Shown here piece by piece: positions 43,552-60,217 of a stretch of DNA of 64,000 nt. The DNA is taken from NCBI GenBank assembly GCA_020632415.1, contig JACKFO010000002.1, positions 514,732-578,731 of the forward strand, written 5' to 3'. Made by a program: the position numbers and the translations under genes. Below the pieces are notes generated by a model that was not told where the DNA came from, did no database searches, and saw only the letters and a program-made list of their open reading frames with translations. This DNA comes from Candidatus Nomurabacteria bacterium (GTDB taxonomy: Bacteria; Patescibacteriota; Patescibacteriia; UBA1558; GWA2-36-10). Numbering within the stretch: position 1 is the first letter of the stretch; each line of letters begins with the position of its first letter.

Positions 43552-44439
43552 TCAATCCAACGGACTTTTTAAATTCTGCCAAAAATCCCGCGCCACGGCA
43601 GTATAAATTTCCGTAGTTTTGATACTCTGATGTCCAAGTAGCTTTTGGATATAACGAATGCTCACGCCACTTTCCAAAAGATGTGTGGCAAAACTATGTC
43701 GCAAACTATGGCAAGAAACATCAGTCTTGATCCCAACTTTTTGACAAGCATGTTCAAATATTTTCTGCGCTGTTCTGATCTGCAAATGTCCTCTGCTTTC
43801 TGTGCTGCTAAATAAATATTTTTGCTCTGCTGGCAAATCAGCTAAATATTTTTCTGCCAAATCTATACTTTTTTGACTAAGCAAAGTATAACGATCTTTG
43901 TTACCTTTAGCACCACGAACAAAAATATATTTATTTTCTAAATCTAAATCCGAAATTTTTAAAACTACCACTTCAGAAACTCGCAAACCAGAGCCATATA
44001 GTAAGCTTAAGATTAACTGATGTTTAAGATTTGCGGCGGCTGCTAAAATACTTTTAACTTGCTCTTTAGACAATACTTGCGGTAAATGCTTTTCGCGCTT
44101 CGGCCGAACCACATTAAAAAACAGCCGCCGTTTTAAAACTTGGCTGTAGTAAAATTTCAAAGCTGAGATCACACTGTTGAGAGAAGTGTTAGTATAATTT
44201 TGACCTTTTAAAACCAAAAGGTAATTTTTGATATCTTGCTGATCAACTTCGCGGGCAGATTTTTGCACAAAATCCAAAAATCTTTGATTATGACTAAGGT
44301 AAGACTTGATTGTCCGTCGACTAAACCCACGGATAATTAACTCTTGTGCCAGACTAGCTAAAGGATGTGATTTGGAAACTAACTGATTGTTTGTTGATAA
44401 TTTTTGGGGCTCTTCAGACCTTTCAAAATCGCTTTTCAT
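43552..44439 (-). CDS. Tyrosine site-specific recombinase (Xer-like length, IntI-like C-terminal motif)
   Basis: Catalytic R...K...HxxR...Y set: LLYGSGLRVSE, HSLRHSFATHLL, LLGHQSIKTTEIYTAV; C-terminus ends KSPLD as in integron integrases, but the IntI-specific additional domain between patches II and III is absent. Confidence 0.8.
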   Translation of the reverse strand: MKSDFERSEEPQKLSTNNQLVSKSHPLASLAQELIIRGFSRRTIKSYLSHNQRFLDFVQKSAREVDQQDIKNYLLVLKGQNYTNTSLNSVISALKFYYSQVLKRRLFFNVVRPKREKHLPQVLSKEQVKSILAAAANLKHQLILSLLYGSGLRVSEVVVLKISDLDLENKYIFVRGAKGNKDRYTLLSQKSIDLAEKYLADLPAEQKYLFSSTESRGHLQIRTAQKIFEHACQKVGIKTDVSCHSLRHSFATHLLESGVSIRYIQKLLGHQSIKTTEIYTAVARDFWQNLKSPLD

Positions 44440-44600
44440 AAGGCTTTGTGATTAATGTTTAAGTATTTACATCTTGGCTAAAAATAGCTAAACTGTCAAT
44501 ATATACGTAAATACCTTGTTAGGTGAAATTTTACGAAACAAAACAAATAAATATTTTAGATTACAAGTCCCTTTTAAAAAAGAGAAATAGAAATTAAGCT

Positions 44601-45587
44601 TTACTGTTCTTGTAAAGCTATTTTGTTTAGAATAGTGTTTTCTAGGTTGTAATTATTACCATGTTGTAATAAGCCTAAATAAGAAGGCAGATTTTTGTTA
44701 TTAACTTTTTTAAGCATTCTTTGTTTTGTTTTAGTTCTTAATACTCTATAATTTGGAAAATTAACATAACCTAAATAATCTACACCACTGGCTAAAGTGG
44801 TTAAAGATACTTTCTTTGGATGTAAGCTAAGTTGAAGTTTTTTGCCAAGAAAATTTTTAATTTGAGGAAGAAGTTTAAGTAAATCTTCCTTGCTTTGGGA
44901 AAGAAAAACAAAATCATCTGCGTAACGAATATAATACTTTTGTTTAAGTTTGTGCTTAACATATTGATCAAATTCATTCATGTAGATATTAATAAAGAGT
45001 TGAGAAGTGAGATTACCCAAAGGAAGTCCTTTGTTTGAAGAGGTTTCAAAGCTATCTATGACTTTACTTAAAAGCCAAAGAATGTTTTGATCTTTAATAT
45101 ATTGAGAAAGAATGTCTTTTAAAATGTTGTGGTCAATATTGGCAAAAAACTTCTGAATGTCACATTTGAGTACATAACAAGTTTTAGTGTTATTTTGACT
45201 TACTTTTAAAGAATAGCTTTTGAATTTATTAATTGCTTTATGTGTTCCTTTATTGTTTCTACAAGAATAGGAGTCTTGAGTGAAAGTATGATCAAAAAAA
45301 GGATATAGTTGTCTATATATTGCATGGTGCAATAATCTATCTTTAACTTGAGCTTTGTGAATGTTTCTGGGCTTAGGATCAGAGATATTAAATGCCTCAT
45401 ATCCTGAATGTTGGTAAGTAAAATTGGCAAGTGAGGTGTGAAGCTGTATAATGTTATCTATTAAGTGTAAAGAAAATAATAAGACATCTGCTTTATGTTT
45501 TTTACCTTGAATAAATTCAGTGTAAGCTGAAAGTAAGTTATCTAAAGAAATAATATCTTTATAAGTATGAATGAATTGCCTTTTCAT
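44601..45587 (-). CDS. Diversity-generating retroelement reverse transcriptase
   Basis: RT motifs including YIRYADDFVFL (YxDD) and LGNLTSQLFINIY, i.e. the DGR-specific (I/L)GxxxSQ in place of QGxxxSP; about 330 aa without an X/maturase domain. The ORF track extends to 45647, but the start is probably the Met of MKRQFIHTYKDIISLDNLL. Confidence 0.85.
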   Translation of the reverse strand: MKRQFIHTYKDIISLDNLLSAYTEFIQGKKHKADVLLFSLHLIDNIIQLHTSLANFTYQHSGYEAFNISDPKPRNIHKAQVKDRLLHHAIYRQLYPFFDHTFTQDSYSCRNNKGTHKAINKFKSYSLKVSQNNTKTCYVLKCDIQKFFANIDHNILKDILSQYIKDQNILWLLSKVIDSFETSSNKGLPLGNLTSQLFINIYMNEFDQYVKHKLKQKYYIRYADDFVFLSQSKEDLLKLLPQIKNFLGKKLQLSLHPKKVSLTTLASGVDYLGYVNFPNYRVLRTKTKQRMLKKVNNKNLPSYLGLLQHGNNYNLENTILNKIALQEQ

Positions 45588-45709
45588 AATGATATGCAAA
45601 AATCTGCCTTTAGGCCTGCCCCCCCAGAGGGATATACGACCTACCAATTTTAGATAAAGCCACTGCGGCTTACAAAATATGGCATAAGTATTTAATAGAT
45701 TTTCCGCGC

Positions 45710-45985
45710 TTGGATAGATATACTTTGGGCGAGAAAATAGATTTGCTTTTTTGTGATGTCATTGAATTATTATTAGAAGCAGTTCAAAGCCAAAAAGAGC
45801 TAAAATTAAAAATAGTGGATAAGGCCTGCGTCCGGCTGGATATGTTAAAATATTTTTTGCAAATTGCTTGGAATTTAAAAACAATGGATAATAAAAAATA
45901 TCTAATAATTTCCAATGCTTTAAATGAAGTGGGCAAAATGCTGGGCGGCTGGAAAAAACAGGTGCAAAATATTACTCTGAAATAA
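45710..45985 (+). CDS. avd: DGR accessory variability determinant (Avd, four-helix-bundle protein); the N-terminus probably extends upstream to about 45640 with a non-ATG start
   Basis: C-terminal ...LNEVGKMLGGWKK resembles the BPP-1 bAvd EVGRILGSWI region; the in-frame upstream extension (LDKATAAYKIW...) also aligns with the Avd N-terminus; opposite strand to the RT and target gene. Confidence 0.65.
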   Translation: MDRYTLGEKIDLLFCDVIELLLEAVQSQKELKLKIVDKACVRLDMLKYFLQIAWNLKTMDNKKYLIISNALNEVGKMLGGWKKQVQNITLK

Positions 45986-45996
45986 AAAAGAAACTG

Positions 45997-46126
45997 GCGA
46001 ACAGCCGCGAAGCGACAGTTGTCGATCCAGTCATTGTCGATCCAGTTGAGATTGAGCTTGCGCTTGCTGTCATTACTGTTGAGGTAGCCGACGTTACGGT
46101 TGCCATTCAGGTTCTGCCAGACGGAA
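45997..46126 (-). repeat. DGR template repeat (TR), 130 bp
   Basis: 130/130 alignable to the VR, with 23 mismatches, all at TR adenines on the minus (coding-sense) strand; TR in the target frame is rich in AAC/AAT codons. Confidence 0.9.
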
Positions 46127-46384
46127 AAGCCGTTTTGTACAAAATATCTTCTTTAGCACCACCTCTTGAATACTCTTGAGGTTGTATTTTATTTGAGATC
46201 TTTAAATCTACCAATATCTTGCACCAAGTTTCTTTTTTGTGAGAATTTTAAGGTAAGTACTCTAGAATAAAATAATTTATCCTACTCTATTCTCGCTTCT
46301 CCTTAAATTCAGAGTTCAACCGTTTCAAACCTTAGCCTGAAACTGTCTCGTTTACTATCCAAAAAATATTTTAACAAATTTTAA

Positions 46385-46440
46385 AGAAAAAGAAAAACTC
46401 CGTCTCTCACCTTCTTAGGGGATATTGAGACGGAGTGGGT
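46385..46440 (-). terminator. Hairpin plus T-tract downstream of the DGR target gene (terminator and possibly the DGR-associated stem-loop)
   Basis: CTCCGTCTC-loop-GAGACGGAG 9-bp stem; T-rich tract on the minus strand. Confidence 0.6.
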
Positions 46441-46506
46441 TGTTGACGCTGGCCAAGTGTCCAAGGGACAATCAAGTCCCGAGTGCACAAGTGACCAAGA
46501 TCAGGT

Positions 46507-47094
46507 TTACTTGCGAACAGCCGCGAAGCGACAGTAGCCGAGCCAGCCACTGCCGACCCAGCTGAGAAAGAGCCCGCGCCCGCTGACAAGACCGTTGAGG
46601 TAGCCGACGTAACGGTGGCCACTCAGGCTCTGCCAGACGGAACCCAGAGCGACGATCGGAAACTGACGCTGCAGCTCGGGGTATTCGATACCGAGAGCGA
46701 GCAGCTCCGACATCGTCGCCGGACGTAGGCCTTCCGCATCCAGAGCCTTGAGCACAGCATCCGTGCTCATGGACTTGTCGAAGTGCTTGAAGATGATCTC
46801 ACACTGATGCCGCTCGTCAGCCTGGAAGTTCCGATCATTGATATCGGAGTTGCTCCAATCGTAGTTTCCAAACCTCACGTTCTCGCTGATGTCACCAGTG
46901 ACGCTGATCTGGTAGATCTTGGCATTGTTGCCGACGATCAGGTTGGCCAGTTCCTTGCGAAGCGTGCGGTTGCTGATGATCTGACGCAGGTTGTCGTCGT
47001 TACCGCCCAACGAATTGACTTCGTCGGACAAGGCCTTGACGATTTCGAAACCGGTGCCGAGACCACTGACGAACTCACTCTTCTGGCGTGCCAT
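46507..47094 (-). CDS. DGR target protein with C-terminal variable region (likely CLec-fold ligand-binding domain)
   Basis: SD AAGGAG before the ATG (MARQKSEF...); the C-terminal 43 aa are encoded by the VR; GC content about 55% against a genome value of about 33%. Confidence 0.8.
   Translation of the reverse strand: MARQKSEFVSGLGTGFEIVKALSDEVNSLGGNDDNLRQIISNRTLRKELANLIVGNNAKIYQISVTGDISENVRFGNYDWSNSDINDRNFQADERHQCEIIFKHFDKSMSTDAVLKALDAEGLRPATMSELLALGIEYPELQRQFPIVALGSVWQSLSGHRYVGYLNGLVSGRGLFLSWVGSGWLGYCRFAAVRK
46512..46641 (-). repeat. DGR variable repeat (VR)
   Basis: See TR; the identical 3' segment (IMH-like GC-rich segment CTGTCGCTTCGCGGCTGTTCGC) is shared by TR and VR. Confidence 0.9.
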
Positions 47095-47433
47095 GATAGG
47101 CTCCTTCACAATTTAGCTCACCTCTTATCTTTGCCTCTTGCAAAGACACAAGGCCTGCTTGTTTAGAAACGGCTATTTCCATATAGCCGCAGCGGCCAAG
47201 TTAGAATGTTTTAATTCTAGCTTAAACGCTGAGGCTATATTTGCAAGTAAAATATCAATGAACTTAATAATAAATAAGTATATCATATATTAGCTATTCT
47301 GTCAAGCATTATAACAAAAACTGCCATATTTAGGCTAAAATTAGCTAAAATACTTATTTCTACCAAACATTCTTCTCTATTTCTCTTTTTTAAGGGACTT
47401 GTTTATTATATAGGTAATTTGTTTCGTAAAACT

Positions 47434-47637
47434 GTCACCCAACACCCGGTATGCGGTTCGCGAGAGACTACTAGAAAAATATACTTATTGCAAATAAGTA
47501 TATTTTCATTTAAAGTTAATAAGGTATATTTTTCTTCAGTCCTCGCTCTCGTAAATCCCTCGACTCCAACGCATGATTATAAGATTATATCATGCAGGAG
47601 TCTCGGGACTTCGCATACCGTGGACAGTTAGCTGAAA
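47434..47637 (+). repeat. Integron attC-like imperfect palindrome (long form, no ORF inside); first element of the cassette array
   Basis: Left arm CACCCAACACCCGGTATGCGGTTCGCGAGAG is complementary to right arm CTCGGGACTTCGCATACCGTGGACAGTTAGCTG; the terminal boxes ACCCAAC / GTTAGCT fit RYYYAAC / GTTRRRY. Confidence 0.6.
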
Positions 47638-47734
47638 TATTCCTTTTCTTTTAATGAATAAATAAGCTATTATTAAAAAACATTTTCAAATTTCTTTTTC
47701 TTTATTATAAAGGGGAACCTGCCTGTCGGCAGGA

Positions 47735-50700
47735 GTGGATGTTTCCTCCGCTACGCTTCGGAAACAATTTAATAATTTAAATACAATGAATCAATATTAC
47801 AGAGGCTCAGAGTGGCGCAAGTGGGATCTTCACATTCACACTCCAAAATCAATAATCCAACAATACAGCGGCGATACTGAGGCTGTTTGGGATATATTTA
47901 TTAAAAAACTTGCACAATTGCCACCGGAGTTAAAAGTAATAGCCGTTACTGACTATCTTTTTTGTGATGGGTATGAGTATCTACTTACGCGCAAGGACGA
48001 GATACCAAATATCAAATTGATCATTCCCAACATCGAATTCCGTCTCAATACGTTTAGCGGTACACCAAACAATACAAAGCGACACAATTTCCATGTACTC
48101 TTTGACCCGTCGGTTTTAATTCAAGATATCCGAGATCAACTGCTCAACTGTCTTTCAACCGGCTACAAAATCGAGGACGGCACCGAATGGTTACAAACAC
48201 CCACAGTTCGCTCACTTGAAGAATTAGGACGTCAGATAAAAGCCGCCGCTCCACCCGAGAATACTGTACATACCAAATCCGATCTGAAAGTCGGCTTTGA
48301 AAACATCACCTACAAACGTGAGGACATCGAAATATTACTTAATAAAAATTGTTTTAAGGGTCGTTTCGTAACTGCAGTCGGCTATTCCGAATGGGATCAA
48401 TCCAGATGGGACCAGTCAACCGCAGAAAAGCGTACACTGATAAATACCGCAAACTTTTCACTTACAAGCTTGAATGACCCAGCAAAAATCGAGGAAAACC
48501 GTAGAGATCTTACCGCCAACAAACTAAATAATATTGTGCTTCACTCTTCCGATTCTCATGACATTGATTGCGTGGGAGAGACAATGCTTTGGATAAAAGC
48601 CGATCCTACCTTTGCAGGCTTAAAACAGGTTTTAAATGAGCCAGAAGCACGTGTCTTTATTGGTGCGACACCTCCAAACTACAAACCAGAGCATAAGGTT
48701 ATTTCTCGTATTTCAATTCCATCATCAAACGGATGGTTTGCTGATGATTTCTCTATAGAATTGAATAGAGATCTTGTTACCGTTATTGGCGGACGTGGTT
48801 CTGGTAAGTCTGCCCTAGCAGAAGTAATCGCCTGTGGTGCTGGCAGTGAGGACGAAAGCGACGATGCATTCTTGAAGAAAGCTACAAAGCATCCCAACCC
48901 CATCAAAGGTGCGGAGATTTTTGTGGAGTGGGCTGATGGAAACACTACTAGCTTTAAGGTTGGCGAGCTTCCCGAAGATCAAGGACTCGTACGTTATCTC
49001 CCCCAAGGAGTTGTAGAAGAATTATGCTCTCACAAGAATAGTGAAAAGCTTCAGAAACAAATCGAGAATGTTATCTTCCAAGCTCTTGATGATACGGAAC
49101 GCATGGGGGCGTCTGATTTCGATGAGCTGCAAATACGTATCTTGAGCGGCTTCCAATATGAGAAGGAGCAAATTGTAAAAAAGGTCCGTGACATAAACCG
49201 AAAACTAAGCAGCCTATCAACTGTCCTCTCCGGTTTGCCGGATAAACAAAAAATTCTCGATGACAGCAAGAAAGAGCTAGAACGGTTGATTAAAAGCTTA
49301 CCAGAACTTCCTGCTGAGGACAAAAAAGGTCAGGAGGAACTTGCCGCACTTGCGGAAATAAAGAAGAAATTTGAAACGAAGATTATCGAGCTTCAAAAAC
49401 GTCTCAACAAGATATTTGAAGTAGAATCCAAAGTAAAAGTTTTCAAAACAAAGGTTAAGGAATTCGGAGAAGAAACGAGCGCACTATTGTCGGATCTTGG
49501 TATCACTGACACATCGGCTTTCGATGTAAATGTAGACGATATCAATATTAAGGCCGTGTTGGACGAGAAGAAAAACGAGATTACTAACGATCTCAGGATT
49601 CTCAAGGAAGGTACGAAATTGGATGTCGCTATTGTATTGGGTATGGAAACAAATCTTCCGTTTGATAACCTTCAGACACTTAACCAAGGTATTGAGGACA
49701 AGCAAAAAGAAACGCGCGCATTTGAAACCACAAAACTCAAGTACCAACAGCAAAAGAAAACCGCGCTTGCGCTCGAAAGCTCGATCCAGGCTCTTGAAAA
49801 TGAAATATCCAAAATCAGCACTGAATCTACTCCAGAAAAGGAACGACTGGAAAAAGAGCGCATAAACACGTACTGCTCATATTTCAAGTTACTAGGCGAA
49901 GAAAAAATACAAATGGAAGTATTATATAAACCGCTTCAAAAATCACTCTTAGCCGGAACAGACACCGATAAGAAACTTATGTTTGAGGCACAAATAAACT
50001 ATCGCTTGGAAGCACACAATAAAAATGGCCTCGACATCATTGACCGCACGCGCAAAGGAAATTTCCGCGAGCCTGGAAACCTCAAAACTGCGCTTACTGA
50101 ACTCTGGGATGAAACGGTAAGACATAACTTCGATAAAGATATTCTCGAAACAGAAATTAAAAAAATCATCGAAGCGTTTACGACATGTGATGGGGAAAGC
50201 GTCACAATTGAAAGTCAACTGCGCGATAATTACGGCATTGAGGATTTTTACAATTGGCTATTTGATCCGACCAATTTTGAAATTGTGTCTTCACTTAAAT
50301 TCGACGACACAAATCTCTACGTACTTTCACCTGGACAGAAAGGTATTATTTTACTCATGCTTTTCTTAGAGATCGATAAAGGAGATTATCGACCACTTAT
50401 CATCGACCAACCTGAAGAGAACTTGGATAACCTCTCAGTCTATAAAGACCTCATTAACTACTTCCGAGAACGCAAACAATACCGACAAATCATCATGGTT
50501 ACTCACAACCCGAACCTTGTCGTAAACACTGATGCGGAGCAGATTATCGTTGCCAGCTATAATGGCAAGCACATACCTCGTTTGACGTACAGCTCAGGAT
50601 CACTTGAGGATCAGGCAAAACAGATTCCAAATACATCGACTATGGAACTTGAAGATGGGATTATTGAGCAAGTTTGTAACATTCTTGAAGGAGGCGAACG

Positions 50701-50764
50701 TGCATTTGAAAAACGGAAGAAAAAATATCAAATATCTCAAAAAATGAAAAATCAAGAGTCATAA
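47735..50764 (+). CDS. PHP-domain phosphoesterase fused to an SbcC/Rad50-like coiled-coil ABC ATPase (about 1000 aa); candidate defence/conflict-system protein
   Basis: N-terminal PHP motifs WDLHIHTPKS, IAVTDY, HNFHVLFDP; Walker A VIGGRGSGKSAL; about 300-aa coiled coil; C-terminal signature LSPGQKG, Walker B LIIDQPEENLD, H-loop MVTHNPN. The start is either GTG 47735 (overlapping SD AGGAG) or ATG 47786. Confidence 0.75.
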   Translation: MDVSSATLRKQFNNLNTMNQYYRGSEWRKWDLHIHTPKSIIQQYSGDTEAVWDIFIKKLAQLPPELKVIAVTDYLFCDGYEYLLTRKDEIPNIKLIIPNIEFRLNTFSGTPNNTKRHNFHVLFDPSVLIQDIRDQLLNCLSTGYKIEDGTEWLQTPTVRSLEELGRQIKAAAPPENTVHTKSDLKVGFENITYKREDIEILLNKNCFKGRFVTAVGYSEWDQSRWDQSTAEKRTLINTANFSLTSLNDPAKIEENRRDLTANKLNNIVLHSSDSHDIDCVGETMLWIKADPTFAGLKQVLNEPEARVFIGATPPNYKPEHKVISRISIPSSNGWFADDFSIELNRDLVTVIGGRGSGKSALAEVIACGAGSEDESDDAFLKKATKHPNPIKGAEIFVEWADGNTTSFKVGELPEDQGLVRYLPQGVVEELCSHKNSEKLQKQIENVIFQALDDTERMGASDFDELQIRILSGFQYEKEQIVKKVRDINRKLSSLSTVLSGLPDKQKILDDSKKELERLIKSLPELPAEDKKGQEELAALAEIKKKFETKIIELQKRLNKIFEVESKVKVFKTKVKEFGEETSALLSDLGITDTSAFDVNVDDINIKAVLDEKKNEITNDLRILKEGTKLDVAIVLGMETNLPFDNLQTLNQGIEDKQKETRAFETTKLKYQQQKKTALALESSIQALENEISKISTESTPEKERLEKERINTYCSYFKLLGEEKIQMEVLYKPLQKSLLAGTDTDKKLMFEAQINYRLEAHNKNGLDIIDRTRKGNFREPGNLKTALTELWDETVRHNFDKDILETEIKKIIEAFTTCDGESVTIESQLRDNYGIEDFYNWLFDPTNFEIVSSLKFDDTNLYVLSPGQKGIILLMLFLEIDKGDYRPLIIDQPEENLDNLSVYKDLINYFRERKQYRQIIMVTHNPNLVVNTDAEQIIVASYNGKHIPRLTYSSGSLEDQAKQIPNTSTMELEDGIIEQVCNILEGGERAFEKRKKKYQISQKMKNQES

Positions 50765-50860
50765 ATTTTGGGCTCGGGCATTCACCCCTTTATCCCCTCT
50801 GCCCTTCGCCCAAAAATGAAAAAAAGAAATTCACTAAGAATAAATACTAAGAATTTAAGA

Positions 50861-50891
50861 AAAGGAATACATCAGCCAACAGCGGATGTCC
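50861..50891 (+). repeat. attC-like short element (left arm only): CAGCCAACAGCGGATGTCCGATAAGCAAG
   Basis: Its reverse complement is found split at both ends of the long element at 51264-51374. Confidence 0.55.
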
Positions 50892-50921
50892 GATAAGCAA
50901 GTTTAATTTTAATTAAAATAT

Positions 50922-51272
50922 ATGCAAGAAAAAACAAAAAAACATCTAGTGAGTTATTTAATAATCTACTTAATAGTATCTGGATTATTATTAGTATTAT
51001 TACGGGACATGTACTCTGCTTTGGTTAGTGGATTATCATTAGTATTATTATTCATAATACTACCTCACAGAATATATCTGCTATTTAAAAATCCAAAAGC
51101 AGAGAATAATATATCAGGAAAAAACATAGCCTTGATACTATTTGCATCTATACTATGTATAGCTGGTTTTTTCATGTACTTGCTAAATGAAAATCTATAT
51201 TGGCCAGGCAAAATATTATTCGTTATAGGATTAACATACATTGTAAGTGCTGTAAGAAATACTAAAAATTAA
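50922..51272 (+). CDS. Cassette ORF: small membrane protein (3 TM helices)
   Basis: 116 aa hydrophobic ORF bounded by attC-like elements. Confidence 0.4.
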   Translation: MQEKTKKHLVSYLIIYLIVSGLLLVLLRDMYSALVSGLSLVLLFIILPHRIYLLFKNPKAENNISGKNIALILFASILCIAGFFMYLLNENLYWPGKILFVIGLTYIVSAVRNTKN

Positions 51273-51374
51273 ACTTGCTTATCCAAATTCCACTTTCGCT
51301 TTTGCGGTTTGCTCCGCAAAATTATACCGCAACGCTCAAGTGAAACTTCGGACATCCGCGTAATGTTAGCTGAA
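51264..51374 (+). repeat. attC-like long element ending in CGGACATCCGCGTAATGTTAGCTGAAAT
   Basis: Equals the reverse complement of the 50861-50891 element with a 75-bp internal insertion. Confidence 0.55.
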
Positions 51375-51448
51375 ATAAATTTTTCCTTTTTACAATAAAA
51401 CAAACCAAAATAACAAAAATACTTATTTGATTTTTTTATCAATATTAT

Positions 51449-51925
51449 ATGGACTTCTCTCAAGTAGACAATCAGACTAAAACCGAATTTAGAGCAACGA
51501 GAATTTTTATTCGTAGTCAAAATTTAGACGATACCGAAAAAAATTTTAAAAAAGAAATCGATGATCTAAGTATAGATATAATATATATTCCAAAATCTTT
51601 AAAATTTCAAATTGTTTCAGTTGATGGCGGGCCAGATAAATTAATGTCCAAAGGAGAATATGAGTGGTCATTTTTATTAACAGATTTTTTTAGAATATAC
51701 ATTAAAGAACCAATACTAAAAAAGACTAAAAAATACGCCGGTCAACCAGGTCAAGACACAATACTTATAATTCACGCATTAAATATGCCTGCAACGGAAG
51801 AAATAATTACAAAAACAATTGAAGATAATAAAAATCATATTAATAAATTAGGTAATGATAGTGGATTTAATAAAATTTTTTTAATTTTTGATTCTAAAGA
51901 AAAAGTTTTTGATTTATTCAAATAA
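51449..51925 (+). CDS. Cassette ORF: hypothetical protein (158 aa)
   Basis: ORF between attC-like elements; no motif recognised. Confidence 0.4.
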   Translation: MDFSQVDNQTKTEFRATRIFIRSQNLDDTEKNFKKEIDDLSIDIIYIPKSLKFQIVSVDGGPDKLMSKGEYEWSFLLTDFFRIYIKEPILKKTKKYAGQPGQDTILIIHALNMPATEEIITKTIEDNKNHINKLGNDSGFNKIFLIFDSKEKVFDLFK

Positions 51926-51983
51926 AAAAATCAAATCATACTATTAAATAATAAAAACATTTAAAAATCTAAGAAAAAATTTA

Positions 51984-52006
51984 CATCACCCAACAGCGGA
52001 TGTGAG
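51984..52006 (+). repeat. attC-like short element CATCACCCAACAGCGGATGTGAG
   Basis: Consensus short form, repeated at least 8 times in the array. Confidence 0.55.
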
Positions 52007-52038
52007 GCTCCGCCTTTAAGAATAATATAAAATTAATT

Positions 52039-52608
52039 ATGGACTTATACCAAAAAACAGAACAATTTGTCATAGATTCCTTTACTAAAGCTGGAGATGA
52101 ACGTGGAATTAAACATTTCTTAAGAACTGTTTATTGGTTAGAGCAATTAAAGCCAAATGCTGATGAAGCATTAAAAATTGCTGCAGTTGCTCATGACATT
52201 GAAAGAGCTTTTAGAAAACAAGATTATGCTAATGTCTTTAATTCTGAAAAAGGTTTTGCTAGTGATGAACATTTGAGTTATCATCAAACTGAAGGAGCAA
52301 AAATAATCTCTGAGTTTTTGAAAAAAGAAGGTGCGGATAAAAAAATTGTAGAGCGTGTTAAAATGTTAGTAGAAAAACACGAGATTGGTGGCAATGAAGA
52401 TCAAAATCTAGTAAAAGATGCTGATAGTGTAAGCTTTTTTGAAAATAACGCTAATCACTTTATAGAAGTGAAAGTTAAACAGACAAGCAAAGAGAAAGTA
52501 AAAGATAAATTTGATTGGATGTTTAATAGAATTACTTCTGACAAAGCTAAAGAGCTAGCAAAACCTTGGTATGAAGAAGGATTGCATAAATTGTCCTTAC
52601 TGGATTAA
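52039..52608 (+). CDS. Cassette ORF: HD-domain phosphohydrolase
   Basis: H ... AHDIER ... D metal-binding pattern. Confidence 0.55.
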   Translation: MDLYQKTEQFVIDSFTKAGDERGIKHFLRTVYWLEQLKPNADEALKIAAVAHDIERAFRKQDYANVFNSEKGFASDEHLSYHQTEGAKIISEFLKKEGADKKIVERVKMLVEKHEIGGNEDQNLVKDADSVSFFENNANHFIEVKVKQTSKEKVKDKFDWMFNRITSDKAKELAKPWYEEGLHKLSLLD

Positions 52609-52629
52609 TTTTATATTATTCTTAAGCTT

Positions 52630-52725
52630 CGCCCAAATCACTCGTTCGTTTACGTGATGCGCTTCGCGCTATTATATCACGACACTCACTCGTGACTTCT
52701 CACATCCGCGATATGTTAGGTGAAA
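52630..52725 (+). repeat. attC-like long element (TCACCCAAATCACTCG ... CTCACATCCGCGATATGTTAGGTGAAA)
   Basis: Consensus long form; near-identical copies at 53913, 57196, 60218 and 62541. Confidence 0.6.
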
Positions 52726-52769
52726 CCGAGAATTTATAAAATAAATATTTCTATTACAAAAAAAATAAA

Positions 52770-53315
52770 ATGCGATACGTTATTGTCTGTAATTTAAATG
52801 GTGATGTTGTCAAATATCACAAACAATTAGTTAATGAAATAGCTAAAAATTTTAATATTGCTAAGCCAAAAAAACAAAATCTACAACCACATTTTACACT
52901 TAAGTATGGATTTGAAACTAATAATATAAAAACAATTGAAAAGGCAATAAAAGATTTCTGCGCTAGAAACCATAAAGCTTCTGTTAAAATTAATGGTTTT
53001 GGCAAATTTAGAAAAGATGTAATATTTTGTAAAGTTATTCTTTCAAAAAAAGCTTACGCTATATTCACTGAACTTTTAAATGACTTGAAAAAAATCCCCA
53101 AATTAACATGGAATAAGAATGATGGAAAAAGGCTAAAATTCCATGCTACCATAGCTGCAGATTGTGAAGACAAATATACTGAAATTCAAAAATATTTAAA
53201 AGGAAAAGAAAAAAACTTTACTACCTATTTTGACAACATCACCATACTACAACAACAAAGAATAGTTGATGGAATAAGTATTTGGAAAACATTTAAAAAA
53301 TTTCAAATTAAATAG
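52770..53315 (+). CDS. Cassette ORF: 2H-phosphoesterase (LigT-like) family protein
   Basis: Two HxT/Sx motifs: PHFTLKY and FHATIAA. Confidence 0.55.
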   Translation: MRYVIVCNLNGDVVKYHKQLVNEIAKNFNIAKPKKQNLQPHFTLKYGFETNNIKTIEKAIKDFCARNHKASVKINGFGKFRKDVIFCKVILSKKAYAIFTELLNDLKKIPKLTWNKNDGKRLKFHATIAADCEDKYTEIQKYLKGKEKNFTTYFDNITILQQQRIVDGISIWKTFKKFQIK

Positions 53316-53326
53316 CAAATTCTCGA

Positions 53327-53373
53327 CATCACCCAACAGCGGATGTGAAGTTCGTAAAATAAAGAAAATCACC
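53327..53373 (+). repeat. attC-like short element with extended arm
   Basis: CATCACCCAACAGCGGATGTGAAGTTCGTAAAATAAAGAAAATCACC is the reverse complement of the flank and end of the 53894-54009 element. Confidence 0.55.
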
Positions 53374-53375
53374 TT

Positions 53376-53897
53376 ATGAAATATACTATTCCAACAAAAC
53401 AATGGTTGAATCCTAAAGTGGAAATAAAAAACTCCTCTATTGCAAGTAGAGGAATATTTGCTAAAGAGTTAATTAAAAAAGATGAGGTAGTTGTTATTTG
53501 GGGTGGAGATAATTATACAGATTATCAAGGGATGCTCAAAGCTAAAAAAGAAGGTAAATTGGTAATGCATTGGGATGATGATCTATATAGTTTTGAGAAT
53601 AGACAAAGTGATGACACTTATTTTATAAACCATTCTTGTAATTCTAATCTTTGGTTAAAAGATCAATTTACTTTAATTGCTAAAAGAGATATAAATATTG
53701 GAGAGGAAATAACCATTGATTATGCTTTATTTGAAGGAGATGAAGATTATATAGCTCAATGGGAATGTAATTGTAAAGAAGTGGATTGTAGAAAAAAGAT
53801 TACTGGAAATGATTGGAAAATAAAAGCTGTACAAGAAAGATATAAAGATCATTTCTTGCCTTATATTAATAGAAAGATTAATAATTTAAACAAGTGA
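53376..53897 (+). CDS. Cassette ORF: SET-domain protein (putative protein-lysine methyltransferase)
   Basis: NHSCNSNLW and EEITIDY SET motifs plus a Cys-rich post-SET region CNCKEVDCRKK. Confidence 0.6.
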   Translation: MKYTIPTKQWLNPKVEIKNSSIASRGIFAKELIKKDEVVVIWGGDNYTDYQGMLKAKKEGKLVMHWDDDLYSFENRQSDDTYFINHSCNSNLWLKDQFTLIAKRDINIGEEITIDYALFEGDEDYIAQWECNCKEVDCRKKITGNDWKIKAVQERYKDHFLPYINRKINNLNK

Positions 53898-54009
53898 TTT
53901 TCTTTATTTCACTCACCCAAATCACTCGTTCGTTTACGTGATGCGCTTCGCGCTATTATATCACGACACTCACTCGTGACTTCTCACATCCGCGATATGT
54001 TAGGTGAAA
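53894..54009 (+). repeat. attC-like long element
   Basis: Identical to 52630-52725 from CCCAAAT onward. Confidence 0.6.
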
Positions 54010-54053
54010 CCGAGAATTTATAAAATAAATATTTCTATTACAAAAAAAATAAA

Positions 54054-54599
54054 ATGCGATACGTTATTGTCTGTAATTTAAATGGTGATGTTGTCAAATA
54101 TCACAAACAATTAGTTAATGAAATAGCTAAAAATTTTAATATTGCTAAGCCAAAAAAACAAAATCTACAACCACATTTTACACTTAAGTATGGATTTGAA
54201 ACTAATAATATAAAAACAATTGAAAAGGCAATAAAAGATTTCTGCGCTAGAAACCATAAAGCTTCTGTTAAAATTAATGGTTTTGGCAAATTTAGAAAAG
54301 ATGTAATATTTTGTAAAGTTATTCTTTCAAAAAAAGCTTACGCTATATTCACTGAACTTTTAAATGACTTGAAAAAAATCCCCAAATTAACATGGAATAA
54401 GAATGATGGAAAAAGGCTAAAATTCCATGCTACCATAGCTGCAGATTGTGAAGACAAATATACTGAAATTCAAAAATATTTAAAAGGAAAAGAAAAAAAC
54501 TTTACTACCTATTTTGACAACATCACCATACTACAACAACAAAGAATAGTTGATGGAATAAGTATTTGGAAAACATTTAAAAAATTTCAAATTAAATAG
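54054..54599 (+). CDS. Cassette ORF: 2H-phosphoesterase, exact duplicate of 52770-53315
   Basis: 181/181 aa identical, with identical upstream element and downstream left arm. Confidence 0.55.
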   Translation: MRYVIVCNLNGDVVKYHKQLVNEIAKNFNIAKPKKQNLQPHFTLKYGFETNNIKTIEKAIKDFCARNHKASVKINGFGKFRKDVIFCKVILSKKAYAIFTELLNDLKKIPKLTWNKNDGKRLKFHATIAADCEDKYTEIQKYLKGKEKNFTTYFDNITILQQQRIVDGISIWKTFKKFQIK

Positions 54600-54610
54600 C
54601 AAATTCTCGA

Positions 54611-54633
54611 CATCACCCAACAGCGGATGTGAG
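54611..54633 (+). repeat. attC-like short element
   Basis: CATCACCCAACAGCGGATGTGAG. Confidence 0.55.
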
Positions 54634-54704
54634 AAAAAAAGAGAAATAAAAAATTTGAAAAATAAAACCCTCTCGCCACAACAAGTGCAACGAGAGGGAA
54701 AATG

Positions 54705-55007
54705 TCAGTCTTCGATTTCCAGGTTTCCTCTACGGCAACTCAAATCATAATACCCGGAAAATTTAATCCGACAATCACGATCTTCATCCCCGGTGAAATA
54801 TGCGTCTTGAGATGCAAGAGTAATCAAAAACTGAGCACGTTTCTTGTCCATGGACTCAGCCGAGATTACGAAAAATTCGCAAGAACGAACAACGGTTTCT
54901 GAAGTGGTTCTCACGGTAAATCTGACCGTCTTACCCTCTTCAAAGAGAGCTAAGGCGAAATCCCATTTTCCGGGCCCATTAGTGATGACAAACTGCTTGG
55001 AAGACAT
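54705..55007 (-). CDS. Cassette ORF (inverted): hypothetical 100-aa protein, GC-rich
   Basis: ORF with its own terminator hairpin (CCCTCTCG/CGAGAGGG plus T-tract at 54664-54697). Confidence 0.4.
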   Translation of the reverse strand: MSSKQFVITNGPGKWDFALALFEEGKTVRFTVRTTSETVVRSCEFFVISAESMDKKRAQFLITLASQDAYFTGDEDRDCRIKFSGYYDLSCRRGNLEIED

Positions 55008-55159
55008 AACGACTTCCTCCTTTTGAAATGAACTGTGAATTTTAAGGCTTCACTTTGAACCTGTTCATCTTACGATGCACCAAGCTTAACAAAGCCTGGA
55101 ATTACTGAGAATTTAACATAATACTACGTAATTAACTTTTAGTCAAGTCACTAAGTTAA

Positions 55160-55262
55160 TTTTTTATTTCTCTTTTTCTCCAAATTGCCACCTCGTTACG
55201 GTAGTTGTATAATTATACTACCTTCACTCGGCGTCAACTTCTCACATCCGCGATATGTTAGA
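55160..55262 (+). repeat. attC-like long element variant carrying a consensus sigma70 promoter
   Basis: TTGCCA (55185-55190), 17 bp, TATAAT (55208-55213); ends CTCACATCCGCGATATGTTAGACG; about 95% identical to 63440-63545. Confidence 0.55.
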
Positions 55263-55398
55263 CGCCATCGTATTTTTCTCTTATAATCTTTTATTAAATT
55301 AAGAGATTATTTTTTATTTTTAAAGTAAAAGAAAAAGGACCACCCGGTAAGGGGCAACCCTTGATGTGAAGTGGAAGATGGAGCTTCCAAAATCTCAA

Positions 55399-55800
55399 CT
55401 ATCTGGACAGGACAGCTGCTCCAATAGCACGAGCTGCTTCCTGAGCATCTTTCTCTGTCCATCCAGACTGTTTCAAATCAGCATTGATCCGTTGCACATT
55501 GACTCTATCTGGGTGTGTAGCACACTCCTTGCAAATCATAACTCCCCTAGAAACTGAGACGTGCCCAGAAAAGACTGTGACGTCACAGTCTTGCGTTCTC
55601 AAACTCTGACGAATGGCAGTATCCTGGCCGAAGTACACAGTGGCACTCTCCTTCCAATTCCACCTGTCTCCGCAGTTAGGGCAGCCGCCGAAATGATGAA
55701 GATGACCGATGAAATTCTTCCAGACACTCGTCTTGGGGACGAAGTAACATCCGGAGAATACAAGAGCCAAGGTAATGAAAAGTGCGGTGTAGCTAAACAT
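55399..55800 (-). CDS. Cassette ORF (inverted): membrane-anchored Cys-rich protein, GC-rich
   Basis: Start chosen at MFSYTALFITLALVF with a GGAGAC SD; N-terminal TM helix; CPNCGDRW, CKEC. Confidence 0.4.
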   Translation of the reverse strand: MFSYTALFITLALVFSGCYFVPKTSVWKNFIGHLHHFGGCPNCGDRWNWKESATVYFGQDTAIRQSLRTQDCDVTVFSGHVSVSRGVMICKECATHPDRVNVQRINADLKQSGWTEKDAQEAARAIGAAVLSR

Positions 55801-55920
55801 GGTTGTCTCCAAAATCTGATTGTCGTTTAGGTCTGATTTAATATATAAATATAGCATATATTTCAAATTATGTCAAGTACCTAAAAATACTCCTGTAAAT
55901 AGAGAAAAATGCGACAAGCG

Positions 55921-56070
55921 TCCAACACCCGGTATGCAGTTTCCTCGCCTCCGCTAAAGCTACGGCGAAGTTCACCCAAATCGTGTCTTCCCTTATGCGG
56001 TTAGCTTCGCTATAATTATACCGCAGTCGGAAAGACACGACTTCGCATACCGTGGACAGTTAGGTGAAAT
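55921..56070 (+). repeat. attC-like full element without internal ORF
   Basis: Arms CAACACCCGGTATGCAG / TCGCATACCGTGGACAGTTAGGTG; nested CGTGTCTTCC/GGAAGACACG stem; internal TATAAT. Confidence 0.55.
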
Positions 56071-56113
56071 TATACAGATTTTTTCTTGTTTTTTAGACAC
56101 TAATAATATAAAT

Positions 56114-56788
56114 ATGGGACAACAATTCAAAGAGCATGTCCAACGCTCAAAAAATATTTGGATAATATTTATTTCTGTTTTGGGAATCGCCTTAATTGTT
56201 GGTGGAGGTATGTACTTATTACAACAGAATAAAATTATCAGTGTTCAAAAAGATTTACGGGTTTTAACATCTAATCTACAAAATCAAATCACCCAAAGTC
56301 AAACAGAAAATGAAATTTTAAAACAAAATGCCGCTAATCTTCAATCTGAATTGAATGCATTGAAAAATATATCAGAAAACAAAACTGATAATAATTCTTC
56401 AATATATTGTACTAGTGAACCAACGCCGACTGTAATCGGTCGGGATATTTATCCGATTAACGCTGATAAGTATGGCAATATAGGTTTTCTAGGAGAACTT
56501 TTTACAGCTGATGATTGTGGGTCAGATAGAGTTTCCATGATTTTCGGTGTAACTGGTAATAACTATACTCTCTGGCCAGATATTGGACTCAAAAATTATC
56601 CTTCAAAAGAATTATTATCAGTTTTACAATTAATTGGTTTTGAAACTGGCAGTACCTGTGGCGGTTCCTCAGACCTAGATACTTGCACTCATTGGTCGCT
56701 TAAAAAAACTATTCCCTTGAACGAAATTATAAAACTAAAACCATACGCTAAAGAAATAAAAAGTAGCGGCTGTATTAATTGTGGATAG
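56114..56788 (+). CDS. Cassette ORF: membrane-anchored coiled-coil protein with Cys-containing C-terminal domain
   Basis: TM helix at aa 15-35, then a Q/N-rich coiled coil. Confidence 0.45.
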   Translation: MGQQFKEHVQRSKNIWIIFISVLGIALIVGGGMYLLQQNKIISVQKDLRVLTSNLQNQITQSQTENEILKQNAANLQSELNALKNISENKTDNNSSIYCTSEPTPTVIGRDIYPINADKYGNIGFLGELFTADDCGSDRVSMIFGVTGNNYTLWPDIGLKNYPSKELLSVLQLIGFETGSTCGGSSDLDTCTHWSLKKTIPLNEIIKLKPYAKEIKSSGCINCG

Positions 56789-56803
56789 AAAAAATCTGCA
56801 TAA

Positions 56804-56826
56804 CATCACCCAACAGCGAATGTGAG
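56804..56826 (+). repeat. attC-like short element
   Basis: CATCACCCAACAGCGAATGTGAG. Confidence 0.5.
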
Positions 56827-56862
56827 GTTACGAGAAAATAACTAATAATCTTTATACTATAT

Positions 56863-57183
56863 ATGAATCTAGAAGAATTATTACAATTTATTAACAACGA
56901 AGATCAAAGATTGATCCAATTTAAGAATGGTAATAATGAAAAAGAAAGGATACTTTCAAGAACAGTAAAAATGACAGAAGAGTTAGGAGAATTATGTAAT
57001 GAAGTATTATCTTTTATTGGTGATCAAAGAAAAGAAAAACTAGAAAGAACAGATAAAGATAACTTACCAAATGAATTTGCTGACGTAATTATCACTACTC
57101 TACTTCTTGCTAAAACTATGAATGTAGATATAGTAAAAGCTTTAGAAGATAAAATTGAGAAAATAAAGAAGAGAAATTATTAG
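56863..57183 (+). CDS. Cassette ORF: MazG-like nucleoside triphosphate pyrophosphohydrolase
   Basis: EELGELCNEVL (EExGE motif), small all-alpha protein. Confidence 0.5.
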   Translation: MNLEELLQFINNEDQRLIQFKNGNNEKERILSRTVKMTEELGELCNEVLSFIGDQRKEKLERTDKDNLPNEFADVIITTLLLAKTMNVDIVKALEDKIEKIKKRNY

Positions 57184-57195
57184 TTATTTTCTCTT

Positions 57196-57292
57196 CACCC
57201 AAATCACTCGTTCGTTTACGTGATGCGCTTCGCGCTATTATATCACGACACTCACTCGTGACTTCTCGCATCCGCAATATGTTAGGTGAAAT
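57196..57292 (+). repeat. attC-like long element
   Basis: CACCCAAATCACTCG ... GTTAGGTGAAAT. Confidence 0.6.
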
Positions 57293-57314
57293 AATTTTAG
57301 AAATTTAAATACCA

Positions 57315-57689
57315 ATGAAAAGTAACCTCTACAAAAAAGAAAGTAAAATCCATGGATTAGGCATTTTTACTAATGCCCCAATTTTAAAAAATGCAGTTAT
57401 TTATAAAGTACCCTTAAATAAAATTTATCATGCCGCAAGAAAAAAATGTGCTTTTATAGGAAATAATATGTGGGTAGATGATGAAAAAATTCTAAATTTT
57501 ATTAACCACTCATGTAATGCAAACGCTAAACTAGATCTAAGTGATAAACCACAAATTATAGCGAAAAGAAAAATAAAAACCGACGAAGAGATAACTGTTG
57601 ATTACGACCAAACCGAGCTTAATGGAACAAAAATGATATGTTGTTGTAAAAGTAAAAAATGTAAAAAATACTTTCTAACCATTCAATAA
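57315..57689 (+). CDS. Cassette ORF: SET-domain protein (second paralog)
   Basis: NHSCNANAKL, EEITVDYD, post-SET CCCKSKKCKK. Confidence 0.55.
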   Translation: MKSNLYKKESKIHGLGIFTNAPILKNAVIYKVPLNKIYHAARKKCAFIGNNMWVDDEKILNFINHSCNANAKLDLSDKPQIIAKRKIKTDEEITVDYDQTELNGTKMICCCKSKKCKKYFLTIQ

Positions 57690-57690
57690 T

Positions 57691-58338
57691 ATGCTGCCAA
57701 AAATTGGAATTCTAGGAGGAATTGGCCCAGAAGCTTCTGCGGAATTTTATAAAAAACTAATTCAAAAATGCCAAAACTCCAAAATCAAAAATAATCAATC
57801 ATACCCTTATATTATTTTAGAGAGCATACCTGCTCCTGAGTTATTTTTGAAAAAGCCTAACTTGAAAATGTATGAAGACGGCATAAAAAATTTGGAAAAA
57901 TGTAAATCCAACTTCATAGTTATAATTTGCAATACTGCACACATTTTTTTCAAACATTTTCAGGCATTAGTAAAAATACCTATAATAAATCTGGAAGGCG
58001 AAATAGAAAAAGTCCTAAAAAAACAAAAAATTAAGTCGATTTTCATCTTAGGCTCTAGTGCTACAGCTAATAATTTATTCCGCTTTAAAAACATTGAGAC
58101 TAATTCACCTACTAAAGTTGAGCAAAATAAAATTGATAACATTATAAAAAATTATAATGCTGGAAAAAGTAAAAAATTACAAAAAAAAGATTTATTAAAA
58201 ATAGTTAATAAATACAAAAAACATACTTTACTTTTAGCTTGCACGGAAATATCTGCTATGTTGAAAGATGAAAATCTTAAATACATTGATACAATGGATG
58301 TTGCACTTGAGGTTACTTATACAAAGTGGAAAAAATAA
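57691..58338 (+). CDS. Cassette ORF: Asp/Glu racemase family (aspartate racemase-like)
   Basis: IGILGGIGPEAS N-terminus; catalytic Cys motifs CNTAH and ACTEIS. Confidence 0.65.
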   Translation: MLPKIGILGGIGPEASAEFYKKLIQKCQNSKIKNNQSYPYIILESIPAPELFLKKPNLKMYEDGIKNLEKCKSNFIVIICNTAHIFFKHFQALVKIPIINLEGEIEKVLKKQKIKSIFILGSSATANNLFRFKNIETNSPTKVEQNKIDNIIKNYNAGKSKKLQKKDLLKIVNKYKKHTLLLACTEISAMLKDENLKYIDTMDVALEVTYTKWKK

Positions 58339-58359
58339 AAAATTTCTAAAATTACATCG

Positions 58360-58389
58360 CACAACACCCGGTATGCGGTTCGCGAGAAC
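58360..58389 (+). repeat. attC-like short element, second sequence family (CACAACACCCGGTATGCGGTTCGCGAGAAC)
   Basis: Matches the left arm of the 47434 element. Confidence 0.55.
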
Positions 58390-58408
58390 TAAAGAAATAT
58401 AACAAACT

Positions 58409-58924
58409 ATGTTAGAAAATAATTACGATAAAGAATTAGAAAGAGCCATCCAGTTTCTTGTGTTTGCAATTACTGAATCTGGACATAACCCAAAACCAGT
58501 AATCTTACATAGTATTAAGGTAGCTTTATATTTACAAAATAAACAATATTCTAAAGATATTGCTATCGCCTCTTGTTTACATGACTTATTGGAAGATACA
58601 AAAATAAGTGAAGAAGATATAAAAAATGAATTTGGAGATAAAATATTAAATTTAGTTAAAGCAAATACTTTTGATACTTCAATTTCAGATAAAACTGAAC
58701 AATACAAAGAAATGTTTACAAGAACTGTCAAGGCTGGTAAAGAAGCAATGATTATTAAAGCTGCTGATATTCTAGAAAATAGTTATCATTGGAATAAAGC
58801 AATCAATGAAGAACAAGTAAATTGGTTAATTAATAAGGCAAAGTACTTCTTAGAACTCACAGCTATTGAACTTAAAGATGAAATTGTTTACAAAGATTTG
58901 CAAACACAAGTAAATAACTTTTAA
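58409..58924 (+). CDS. Cassette ORF: HD-domain protein
   Basis: H ... LHDLLEDT ... D pattern. Confidence 0.5.
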   Translation: MLENNYDKELERAIQFLVFAITESGHNPKPVILHSIKVALYLQNKQYSKDIAIASCLHDLLEDTKISEEDIKNEFGDKILNLVKANTFDTSISDKTEQYKEMFTRTVKAGKEAMIIKAADILENSYHWNKAINEEQVNWLINKAKYFLELTAIELKDEIVYKDLQTQVNNF

Positions 58925-58938
58925 TCAAATAATTTCTT

Positions 58939-59040
58939 TAGTCCTCGCTCACTGCAAATCCCTCACTCGTCACGGTGGTTATAAATTATACCACCTAAAC
59001 TCGTTCGGGACTTCGCATACCGTGGACAGTTAGGTGAAAT
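58939..59040 (+). repeat. attC-like long element, second family (ends TTCGCATACCGTGGACAGTTAGGTGAAAT)
   Basis: Right-arm partner of 58360-58389; internal TATAAATTATACC. Confidence 0.55.
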
Positions 59041-59099
59041 ATTCCTTTTCTTTTTTCAGATTGGTATCATCATTATTTAAATAATTTTATATAAACAAT

Positions 59100-59555
59100 A
59101 TGCCAAACTTTTTTAAGTATCCAGCTAAAAATTTCAAAAACCAAGATATAAAAATTAGCATTAATTCTGGACCAGTGATTATTGGTGAAGATGGAAGGTT
59201 TTTACTACATATTTCTAGTAGTACAGGAAAATATCAATTTACTGGCGGACGTCTTGACGATAGTAAATCACCAAAAGAGAATGCAATTTTTAGACCAAAA
59301 GAAGATGTTGGTTTAGAAGTGGAATTAATAAAAAATTTAAATCCTTTAGTTATCTCTGATGAAATTGAAAGAAATGGAGAAAAAGAAAAGTTGGTCTTAA
59401 TTCATTATTTAGCAAAATTGAAAGATGGATTTGAACCTGATCTGTCCAGGTGTTCTTGGTTTACATTAGATGAAGTAAAGGAATTAGAAAAAAATAATAA
59501 TGTTTCATCACCAAATATTCTAATTGGCTGTAAATATTTTACTCAAACAATTTAA
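59100..59555 (+). CDS. Cassette ORF: NUDIX-like hydrolase (tentative)
   Basis: Gx5Ex7-like box GGRLDDSKSPKENAIFRPKEDVGLEV, only a partial match to the Nudix signature. Confidence 0.3.
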   Translation: MPNFFKYPAKNFKNQDIKISINSGPVIIGEDGRFLLHISSSTGKYQFTGGRLDDSKSPKENAIFRPKEDVGLEVELIKNLNPLVISDEIERNGEKEKLVLIHYLAKLKDGFEPDLSRCSWFTLDEVKELEKNNNVSSPNILIGCKYFTQTI

Positions 59556-59582
59556 AAAAAGAAAAGGAATACATCACCCAAC

Positions 59583-59604
59583 AGCGGATGTGAGATTCGT
59601 AAAA
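59583..59604 (+). repeat. attC-like short element
   Basis: CATCACCCAACAGCGGATGTGAG. Confidence 0.55.
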
Positions 59605-59624
59605 TAAATAGTAAATAACTTAAC

Positions 59625-60191: not shown

Positions 60192-60217
60192 GGTTAGTTA
60201 TTTGCTATTTATTTTAC

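Follow-up and report, generated by a model that had tools for sequence, protein, structure and literature searches.

A diversity-generating retroelement of candidate phyla radiation type in a Candidatus Nomurabacteria chromosome and the conserved features around it

The locus and its adenine-specific repeat pair

The window analysed here, a stretch of 64,000 nucleotides (64 kb) from contig JACKFO010000002.1 of a Candidatus Nomurabacteria assembly numbered from its first letter, contains a compact group of genes and repeats in the order target gene with variable repeat (VR), structured RNA, template repeat (TR), accessory gene avd on the opposite strand and reverse transcriptase (RT) gene (Table 1). 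This locus is almost certainly a diversity-generating retroelement (DGR) on the Candidatus Nomurabacteria chromosome, with the B3 layout that is typical for bacteria of the candidate phyla radiation (CPR). In an earlier note made from the sequence of this stretch the DGR was described as complete; RT, TR, VR and an Avd homologue are all present, while avd has no in-frame canonical start codon, which leaves completeness uncertain at this one gene.

The central evidence comes from the repeat pair. A repeat search of the region from 43 to 49 kb returned a sole long direct repeat, which is ungapped over 134 nt with 83% identity (45993-46126 versus 46509-46642). Base-by-base comparison of the 130-nt core revealed 22 mismatches, and upon re-alignment the plus-strand TR has a T at each of the 22, i.e., an adenine on the sense (minus) strand; the plus-strand changes from TR to VR are T>C in 13, T>A in six and T>G in three cases, thus reaching all three other bases as had been noted before. 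The probability that all 22 mismatches fall on adenines by chance is 1.3e-16, and this adenine specificity rules out chance or plain duplication as the origin of the repeat. Altogether 22 of the 34 TR adenines are changed in the VR, and none of the 96 non-adenine positions of the TR differs, which argues for a recent homing event. The position of the TR given in the earlier note was recovered by the re-alignment, whereas its VR (46512-46641) had been placed one base too low, with an offset of 515 instead of 516, and its count of 23 mismatches has to be reduced by one.

The TR adenines are distributed over the reading frame of the target with 16 at the first, 18 at the second and none at the third codon position. 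In this frame the TR translates to ...VWQNLNGNRNVGYLNSNDSKRKLNLNWIDNDWIDNCRFAAVRQ and the VR to ...VWQSLSGHRYVGYLNGLVSGRGLFLSWVGSGWLGYCRFAAVRK followed by the stop codon, in agreement with the translations described earlier. Both repeats share an adenine-free, GC-rich terminus of 21 nt resembling an initiation of mutagenic homing (IMH) sequence (VR: 46533-46513; TR: 46017-45997). Searches of the 64-kb window with the TR and with the target protein returned the VR and the TR only, giving no additional targets.

RTs of the DGR clade are characterized by an (I/L/V)GxxxSQ motif and a catalytic YxDD motif. The RT next to the repeat pair carries LGNLTSQ, as noted earlier (45020-45000), and YADD (44924-44913); it is full length and intact, and it keeps every invariant column of an alignment of 36 RT sequences. 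Moreover, it is 57-79% identical to thousands of RTs from the CPR, whose named sources are Patescibacteria or unclassified bacteria. An ordinary duplicated segment, or the RT of a group II intron or retron lying merely beside an unrelated repeat, would be an alternative, and database annotation points in this direction: NCBI labels the protein as 'group II intron reverse transcriptase domain-containing protein' and the best NCBIfam model is that of the group II RT/maturase. However, this model reaches 146.8 bits and stays under its cutoff of 300, no intron RNA was found with Rfam, the mismatches lie solely at TR adenines, and an avd gene and the LGNLTSQ motif are present. Taken together, these sub-cutoff scores, the missing intron RNA, the adenine specificity and the avd gene rule out a group II intron or retron, and the probability left for such a coincidence is negligible.

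The assignment as a DGR is further placed in context by 80 related loci, which were collected by context look-ups and by a scan of species-representative genomes. Across about 70 of them, wherever enough sequence is present, order and spacing are constant: 260-390 nt separate the VR of the target from the TR, about 25-75 nt the TR from the avd homology on the reverse strand, and 0-50 nt the avd N-terminus from the RT start. This is architecture B3, 'TR-(avd)-RT', which makes up 90% of the CPR DGR set (Wu et al., 2018, PMC5758913, citing Paul et al., 2017). The element is a structurally typical DGR of an already described kind that differs in nothing essential from other B3 elements of the CPR; particular to the window copy are a C7 tract that deprives avd of a canonical start, and the repeat-bounded gene array around it. 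With the DGR of the Bordetella phage BPP-1 (mtd-avd-TR-brt) it shares the adenine-specific transfer from TR to VR, an RT with (I/L)GxxxSQ, an avd gene, a 3'-terminal VR in the target, the adenine-free GC-rich stretch in which the homology ends, and a hairpin located downstream of the VR. Unlike BPP-1, it has a conserved structured RNA 5' of the TR, its hairpin is shorter and placed 32 nt from the VR, and it is chromosomal instead of phage-borne.

Table 1. Features of the DGR and its borders (positions are those of the window).
Feature	Position	Strand	Description
Left boundary element	44511-44634		Site GTTAGGTGA (44518-44526) and about 70 nt; inverted repeat with 47327-47452
DGR reverse transcriptase, 328 aa	44601-45587	-	ATG at 45587, stop 44603-44601; Pfam RVT_1 1.6e-27
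Promoter-like TTGGCA-17-TATAAT	45424-45452	+	Within the RT gene, directed toward avd; 11/12 matches
avd accessory gene	45614-45985	+	Opposite to RT, TR and target; open from 45614; stop TAA 45983-45985
C7 (avd sense)/G7 (RT sense) tract	45619-45625		Between avd N-terminus and RT start codon
TR	45997-46126	-	Length 130 nt; its 34 adenines occupy first or second codon positions only
Three-helix RNA element, about 95 nt	46134-46228	-	Directly 5' of the TR, on its sense strand; helix P1 formed by 46224-46213 and 46148-46137
Terminator-like hairpin	46397-46436	-	CTCCGTCTC...GAGACGGAG, then T-run; downstream of the target gene; stronger than the 5-bp hairpin
VR 3' flank	46440-46512	-	Five CTT(T)(R)G motifs and hairpin GGGAC-N6-GTCCC
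Target gene, 195 aa	46507-47094	-	Carries the VR as its C-terminal 43 codons
VR	46513-46642	-	Final 43 codons of the target gene; offset to TR 516
Promoter-like TTGACA-17-TATACT with TG motif	47277-47305	-	Upstream of the target gene; 11/12 consensus matches
Right boundary element	47327-47452		Site TCACCCAAC (47435-47443) and matching inverted-repeat arm

The target gene, the structured RNA and the flank of the variable repeat

The target protein belongs to a family of more than 400 homologues of about 200 residues, the named sources of which are all Patescibacteria. It has no match in Pfam or NCBIfam, its sequence does not match that of any variable protein with solved structure, and neither a signal peptide nor a membrane segment is evident by eye. 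The family alignment shows a conserved scaffold, VWQ..G.R.V.YL......R.L.L.W...DW...CRFAAVRK, and its variable columns are the adenine-containing codons of the TR. An AlphaFold (AF2) model built from this alignment has a mean confidence (pLDDT) of 89. Its best Foldseek matches in PDB and BFVD, almost all of them C-type lectin domains, are weak (E at least 0.07; TM-score 0.3-0.5), and they suggest a compact fold similar to C-type lectins (CLec) as likely for the target. One homologue (58% identical; locus L001, 6001-6591) is found near dnaA in a region with neither RT nor TR within 6 kb, which may indicate, judged from this gene neighbourhood, that some members of the family serve as remote targets or have ceased to be diversified.

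Within their AT-rich cassettes the target genes stand out as islands of high GC content, and the genome of the window is AT-rich as well. In the window, the GC content at third codon positions (GC3) is 0.75 for the target island (46507-47110) with a third-position A fraction of 0.05, compared to a GC3 of 0.21 for the RT. Similarly, the mean GC content of the target genes outside the VR is 0.51 in 65 loci versus 0.37 for RT and 0.38 for avd, and in 57 loci the mean GC3 is 0.62 for the target and 0.38 for the RT. An adenine-specific erosion across the whole target gene as source of this GC richness is not supported, since third-position A and T drop alike in the 57 loci (ratios 0.60 and 0.62), though the third-position A fraction of the window copy is as low as given above.

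The three-helix RNA element directly 5' of the TR, on its sense strand, is present at the equivalent place in all related DGRs of the CPR (loci L004-L088); the AAAUAAAAUACA stretch in it and the hairpin loop AGAGUAUUCAA are both conserved. Compensatory changes are observed for 19 of its 23 base pairs. Furthermore, 97.3% of the alignment cells are paired, compared to 32-57% in controls with the partners shifted by 1-3 columns, and the covariation score is 0.74 versus 0.10-0.21 in these shifted controls. A covariance model made without the window finds the window copy with 95.1 bits (E = 3e-21) and recovers 30 of 37 held-out loci; in six of the seven missed loci the RT is too near to the contig start for the region to exist, and the seventh is L001, which has no DGR nearby. 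The element is probably a part of the template RNA that is recognised by RT and Avd.

Motifs RT-1 to RT-19 are RNA motifs found near RT genes, and of these RT-10 lies in the TR-RT spacer of BPP-1 while others were speculated to belong to DGRs (Weinberg et al., 2017, PMC5737381). The window RNA matches RT-16 (RF03019) in Rfam with 28.4 bits at a gathering score of 50, and no RT-16 matches were obtained in the relatives; membership in RT-16 was rejected on this sub-threshold score and the empty result for the relatives. There is a likeness to RT-16 in the outer helix around a AUAAAAUACA stretch followed by a short hairpin and then GGU, and in the location near RT genes. In contrast, the window element has a hairpin where RT-16 is single-stranded, and its inner stem is shorter.

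The region between the VR and the terminator shows a further pattern. Tandem, degenerate CTT(T)(R)G motifs, spaced mostly by 7-8 nt, occur in the 70 nt past the VR with a mean of 3.9 in 47 loci, compared to 0.8 in shuffled sequences and 0.09 on the other strand. The earlier note had placed a GC-rich hairpin after the VR, and this description holds only partly: there is a modest stem of 5 bp with the sequence GGGAC-N6-GTCCC (46480-46465), 32 nt beyond the VR end, and the stronger hairpin is that of the terminator at 46436-46397. According to a published survey, inverted repeats are found downstream of the VR in only 34% of DGRs.

The accessory gene, the junction tract and the state of the window copy

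The Avd-like open reading frame (ORF) of the earlier note was borne out by profile searches, with matches to bAvd in Pfam (1.8e-15) and to DivGenRetAVD in NCBIfam (3.3e-20; 72.3 bits, just below the cutoff of 80 bits). The entire DivGenRetAVD profile (positions 1-104) aligns from the leucine codon CTA at 45641, which marks the start of the Avd homology. In a start-codon survey of 71 non-redundant relatives, 29 have TTG or ATG at the codon that is aligned to profile position 1, 19 have upstream in-frame starts only, and 23 have none. An absent avd start is thus common and may be served by non-canonical initiation. Going by its reading frames, a full-length Avd from the window would need a non-canonical start or an altered C7 tract.

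This C7 tract is the sole run of seven among the three G/C runs of at least six nucleotides in the window. Most related loci have a G-run of 6-14 nt (RT sense) at the matching position of the avd/RT junction; in loci without it, (GA)n is found in two and (CT)n in one, or a short G4 stands there. The tract lies 5-10 nt upstream of the likely TTG start of avd, and several scaffolds of relatives end at it. An assembly error is unlikely as explanation for C7, since its length is unchanged in an independent assembly. Conserved coding sequence was rejected as well, because hand counts on the sequences of relatives showed no 3-periodicity relative to the RT start. Rapid length change was not seen in a sister DGR, in which all 10 retrieved contigs have G10 though their VRs differ. 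The tract could act as a slippage switch, as a leader element of avd, or as a structural signal in RNA or DNA. Just upstream of the RT start, at 45595-45608, a 14-mer, TGCAAAAATCTGCC, was also observed, with exact inverted copies at 44684-44697 in the 3' end of the RT gene and at 44254-44267 in the recombinase gene.

That the design as such works in nature follows from this sister DGR (P0122; RT 79% identical to that of the window), which is present on many contigs. The 10 contigs retrieved have one TR in common and, leaving the VR aside, are identical throughout the roughly 2.6 kb of DGR core that they share, with the exception of one single-nucleotide polymorphism. Their VRs, however, come in three variants, which depart from the TR at 15, 17 and 8 positions; TR adenines make up 13, 16 and 8 of these. 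About 38 nt past the RT stop these contigs (L092-L101) continue in three different contexts, namely PheS/PheT, or a tRNA with either of two gene sets behind it, which indicates a rearrangement or transfer right at the end of the cassette.

For the window copy itself, several observations weigh against a complete and presently working element. The avd frame is preceded by a stop codon (TAG, 45611-45613) and has no in-frame ATG, GTG or TTG before the codon at 45710; the upstream ATGs at 45589 and 45593 are in other frames, the former requiring C6 or C9 instead of C7, and gene callers give a truncated Avd of 86 residues. Moreover, contigs assembled from two sequencing runs match the window at 100% identity along 5.1 and 2.5 kb with VR and C7 included, i.e., no diversification of the VR was seen in independent assemblies from these two runs. 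On the other side, RT, RNA element and the body of avd are intact in the window copy, and TR and VR differ at no non-adenine position; these points favour activity. Considering the avd gene without in-frame canonical start and the VR that is identical in both runs, current activity of the window copy is given roughly even odds.

A recently silenced or phase-OFF DGR is an alternative, which we consider a real possibility if somewhat short of an even chance. All parts would be present, Avd could not be made from the present sequence, and the VR would be frozen at its last diversified state. This explanation draws on the same two observations, i.e., the lack of a canonical in-frame start for full-length Avd, with C7 putting the upstream ATGs out of frame, and the unchanged VR, and in addition on the sister element, which by contrast varies across samples. 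However, the 23 relatives of the survey likewise lack a canonical start, and a non-canonical one (ATA at 45632 or ATT at 45647) may serve in the window; the active sister also has no start upstream of its C10 tract, though it does have TTG at the position of the leucine codon. Furthermore, the absence of any difference at non-adenine TR positions together with the intact RT, RNA element and avd body argues against a long decay, and the two runs may sample one population.

The surrounding gene array and the proposed mechanism

The DGR (44518 to 47435) forms the first unit in a series of genes bounded by short, recombination-like sites, and it adjoins a tyrosine recombinase gene (43552-44439). 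The core GTTRGGTGA occurs in 15 exact copies in the window where 0.65 are expected; all of them are within 44518-63542 and none is in the first 44 kb. Copies on the plus strand are always GTTAGGTGA and those on the minus strand always GTTGGGTGA. With one-mismatch variants included, the orientation of the sites mostly alternates, and between successive sites there is one gene or nothing. Alongside the sites there are longer repeats, in families of 123, 67 and 50 nt. The inverted repeat flanking the DGR consists of the two bounding sites and the approximately 70 nt inside them, and has a score of 93 compared to 36 +/- 5.6 in shuffled sequences. Flanking inverted repeats as a general feature of DGRs were ruled out, as they are seen in only a few of 44 relatives. 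A palindrome of 211 nt (47425-47635) represents an empty pair of sites and folds into multiple hairpins (z = -8.4 and -9.0 for the two strands versus shuffles) without an Rfam match.

Several side observations were made in this region. The two halves of the palindrome also flank an ORF at 58409-58924, and a Logan contig breaks at the palindrome end. Directly after the DGR unit a gene for an AAA-like ATPase of the TrlF family is located (47786-50764; NCBIfam 572.6 bits, above the cutoff). A direct duplication of 720 nt with 99.9% identity (52629-53348 and 53913-54632) includes a gene for a LigT-like 2'-5' RNA ligase, and its two copies flank a SET-domain gene (53376-53897). Finally, GC-rich tandem repeats of 12 nt (GCGGCGACGATT-like) are found at 63771-63971 within an ORF at the window end.

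Single genes between alternating short sites beside a tyrosine recombinase gene resemble the dif (pdif) modules of Acinetobacter, for which arrays are described as a comparison (e.g., PMC13141974), and the cassette arrays of integrons. Unlike in pdif modules, the 28-bp site structure of XerC, spacer and XerD is not evident, and the array is on a CPR chromosome and not on a plasmid. In comparison with attC sites, the cores fit RYYYAAC/GTTRRRY (TCACCCAAC / GTTAGGT), and the folding of the 123-nt repeats is not that of attC hairpins. The closest solved relative of the recombinase is the archaeal XerA; compared to VchIntIA (2A3V) it has 23 residues where IntI has 64, and it scores 197.6 with TIGR02249, below the cutoff of 265. 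A canonical integron was ruled out on the grounds that the recombinase is without the IntI-specific domain and the 123-nt repeats fold poorly. A related DGR from another metagenome-assembled genome (L011; RT 75% identical) has sites of this family on both sides (2100-2135 and 5005-5160), but the DGR occupies the neighbouring interval of the site pattern. An exact search for one type of site in metagenome contigs gave a sole match, which is a chance match inside an RluA gene.

These features suggest a broader scenario in which the DGR would be a mobile cargo of a Xer-type array, similar to dif modules or integrons, with mutagenesis gated by the tract between avd and RT and the window copy in an OFF state. 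In its entirety this scenario is rather unlikely. The cargo part builds on direct evidence, namely the excess of sites from the recombinase gene onward, their mostly alternating orientation and the flanks of L011, while the gating part builds on the comparative observation that the tract is conserved in position, variable in length and replaced by (GA)n or (CT)n.

For the DGR itself, the reading as a typical CPR element leads to the following proposed course; inferred in it are how the locus is transcribed, what the RNA element does, how the target folds and whether the window copy is active at present. An RNA of the minus strand would contain the conserved three-helix element first and then the TR. 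The RT, aided by Avd, would copy the TR into cDNA and incorporate random bases opposite the 34 template adenines. This cDNA would then take the place of the VR, at the target gene's 3' end, with the adenine-free, GC-rich stretch common to TR and VR as the 3' limit. As an outcome, up to 23 codons would be recoded within the last 43 residues of the 195-residue, probably C-type-lectin-like protein, while codons without adenine would hold the scaffold constant.

As a summary, the locus as a DGR is one further member of a class that is very large and already well described, and it changes little. The more interesting material is comparative and peripheral to the DGR, namely the RNA 5' of the TR, the repeat at the avd/RT junction, the compositional island of the target gene and the site-bounded array. 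The comparative results provide testable leads on the mechanism of DGRs in CPR bacteria, which are not yet culturable for study. The covarying RNA 5' of the TR is missed by current Rfam models, the homopolymer or dinucleotide repeat between the divergent starts of avd and RT could control expression, and the repeat-bounded gene array may explain how such cassettes move between genomes.

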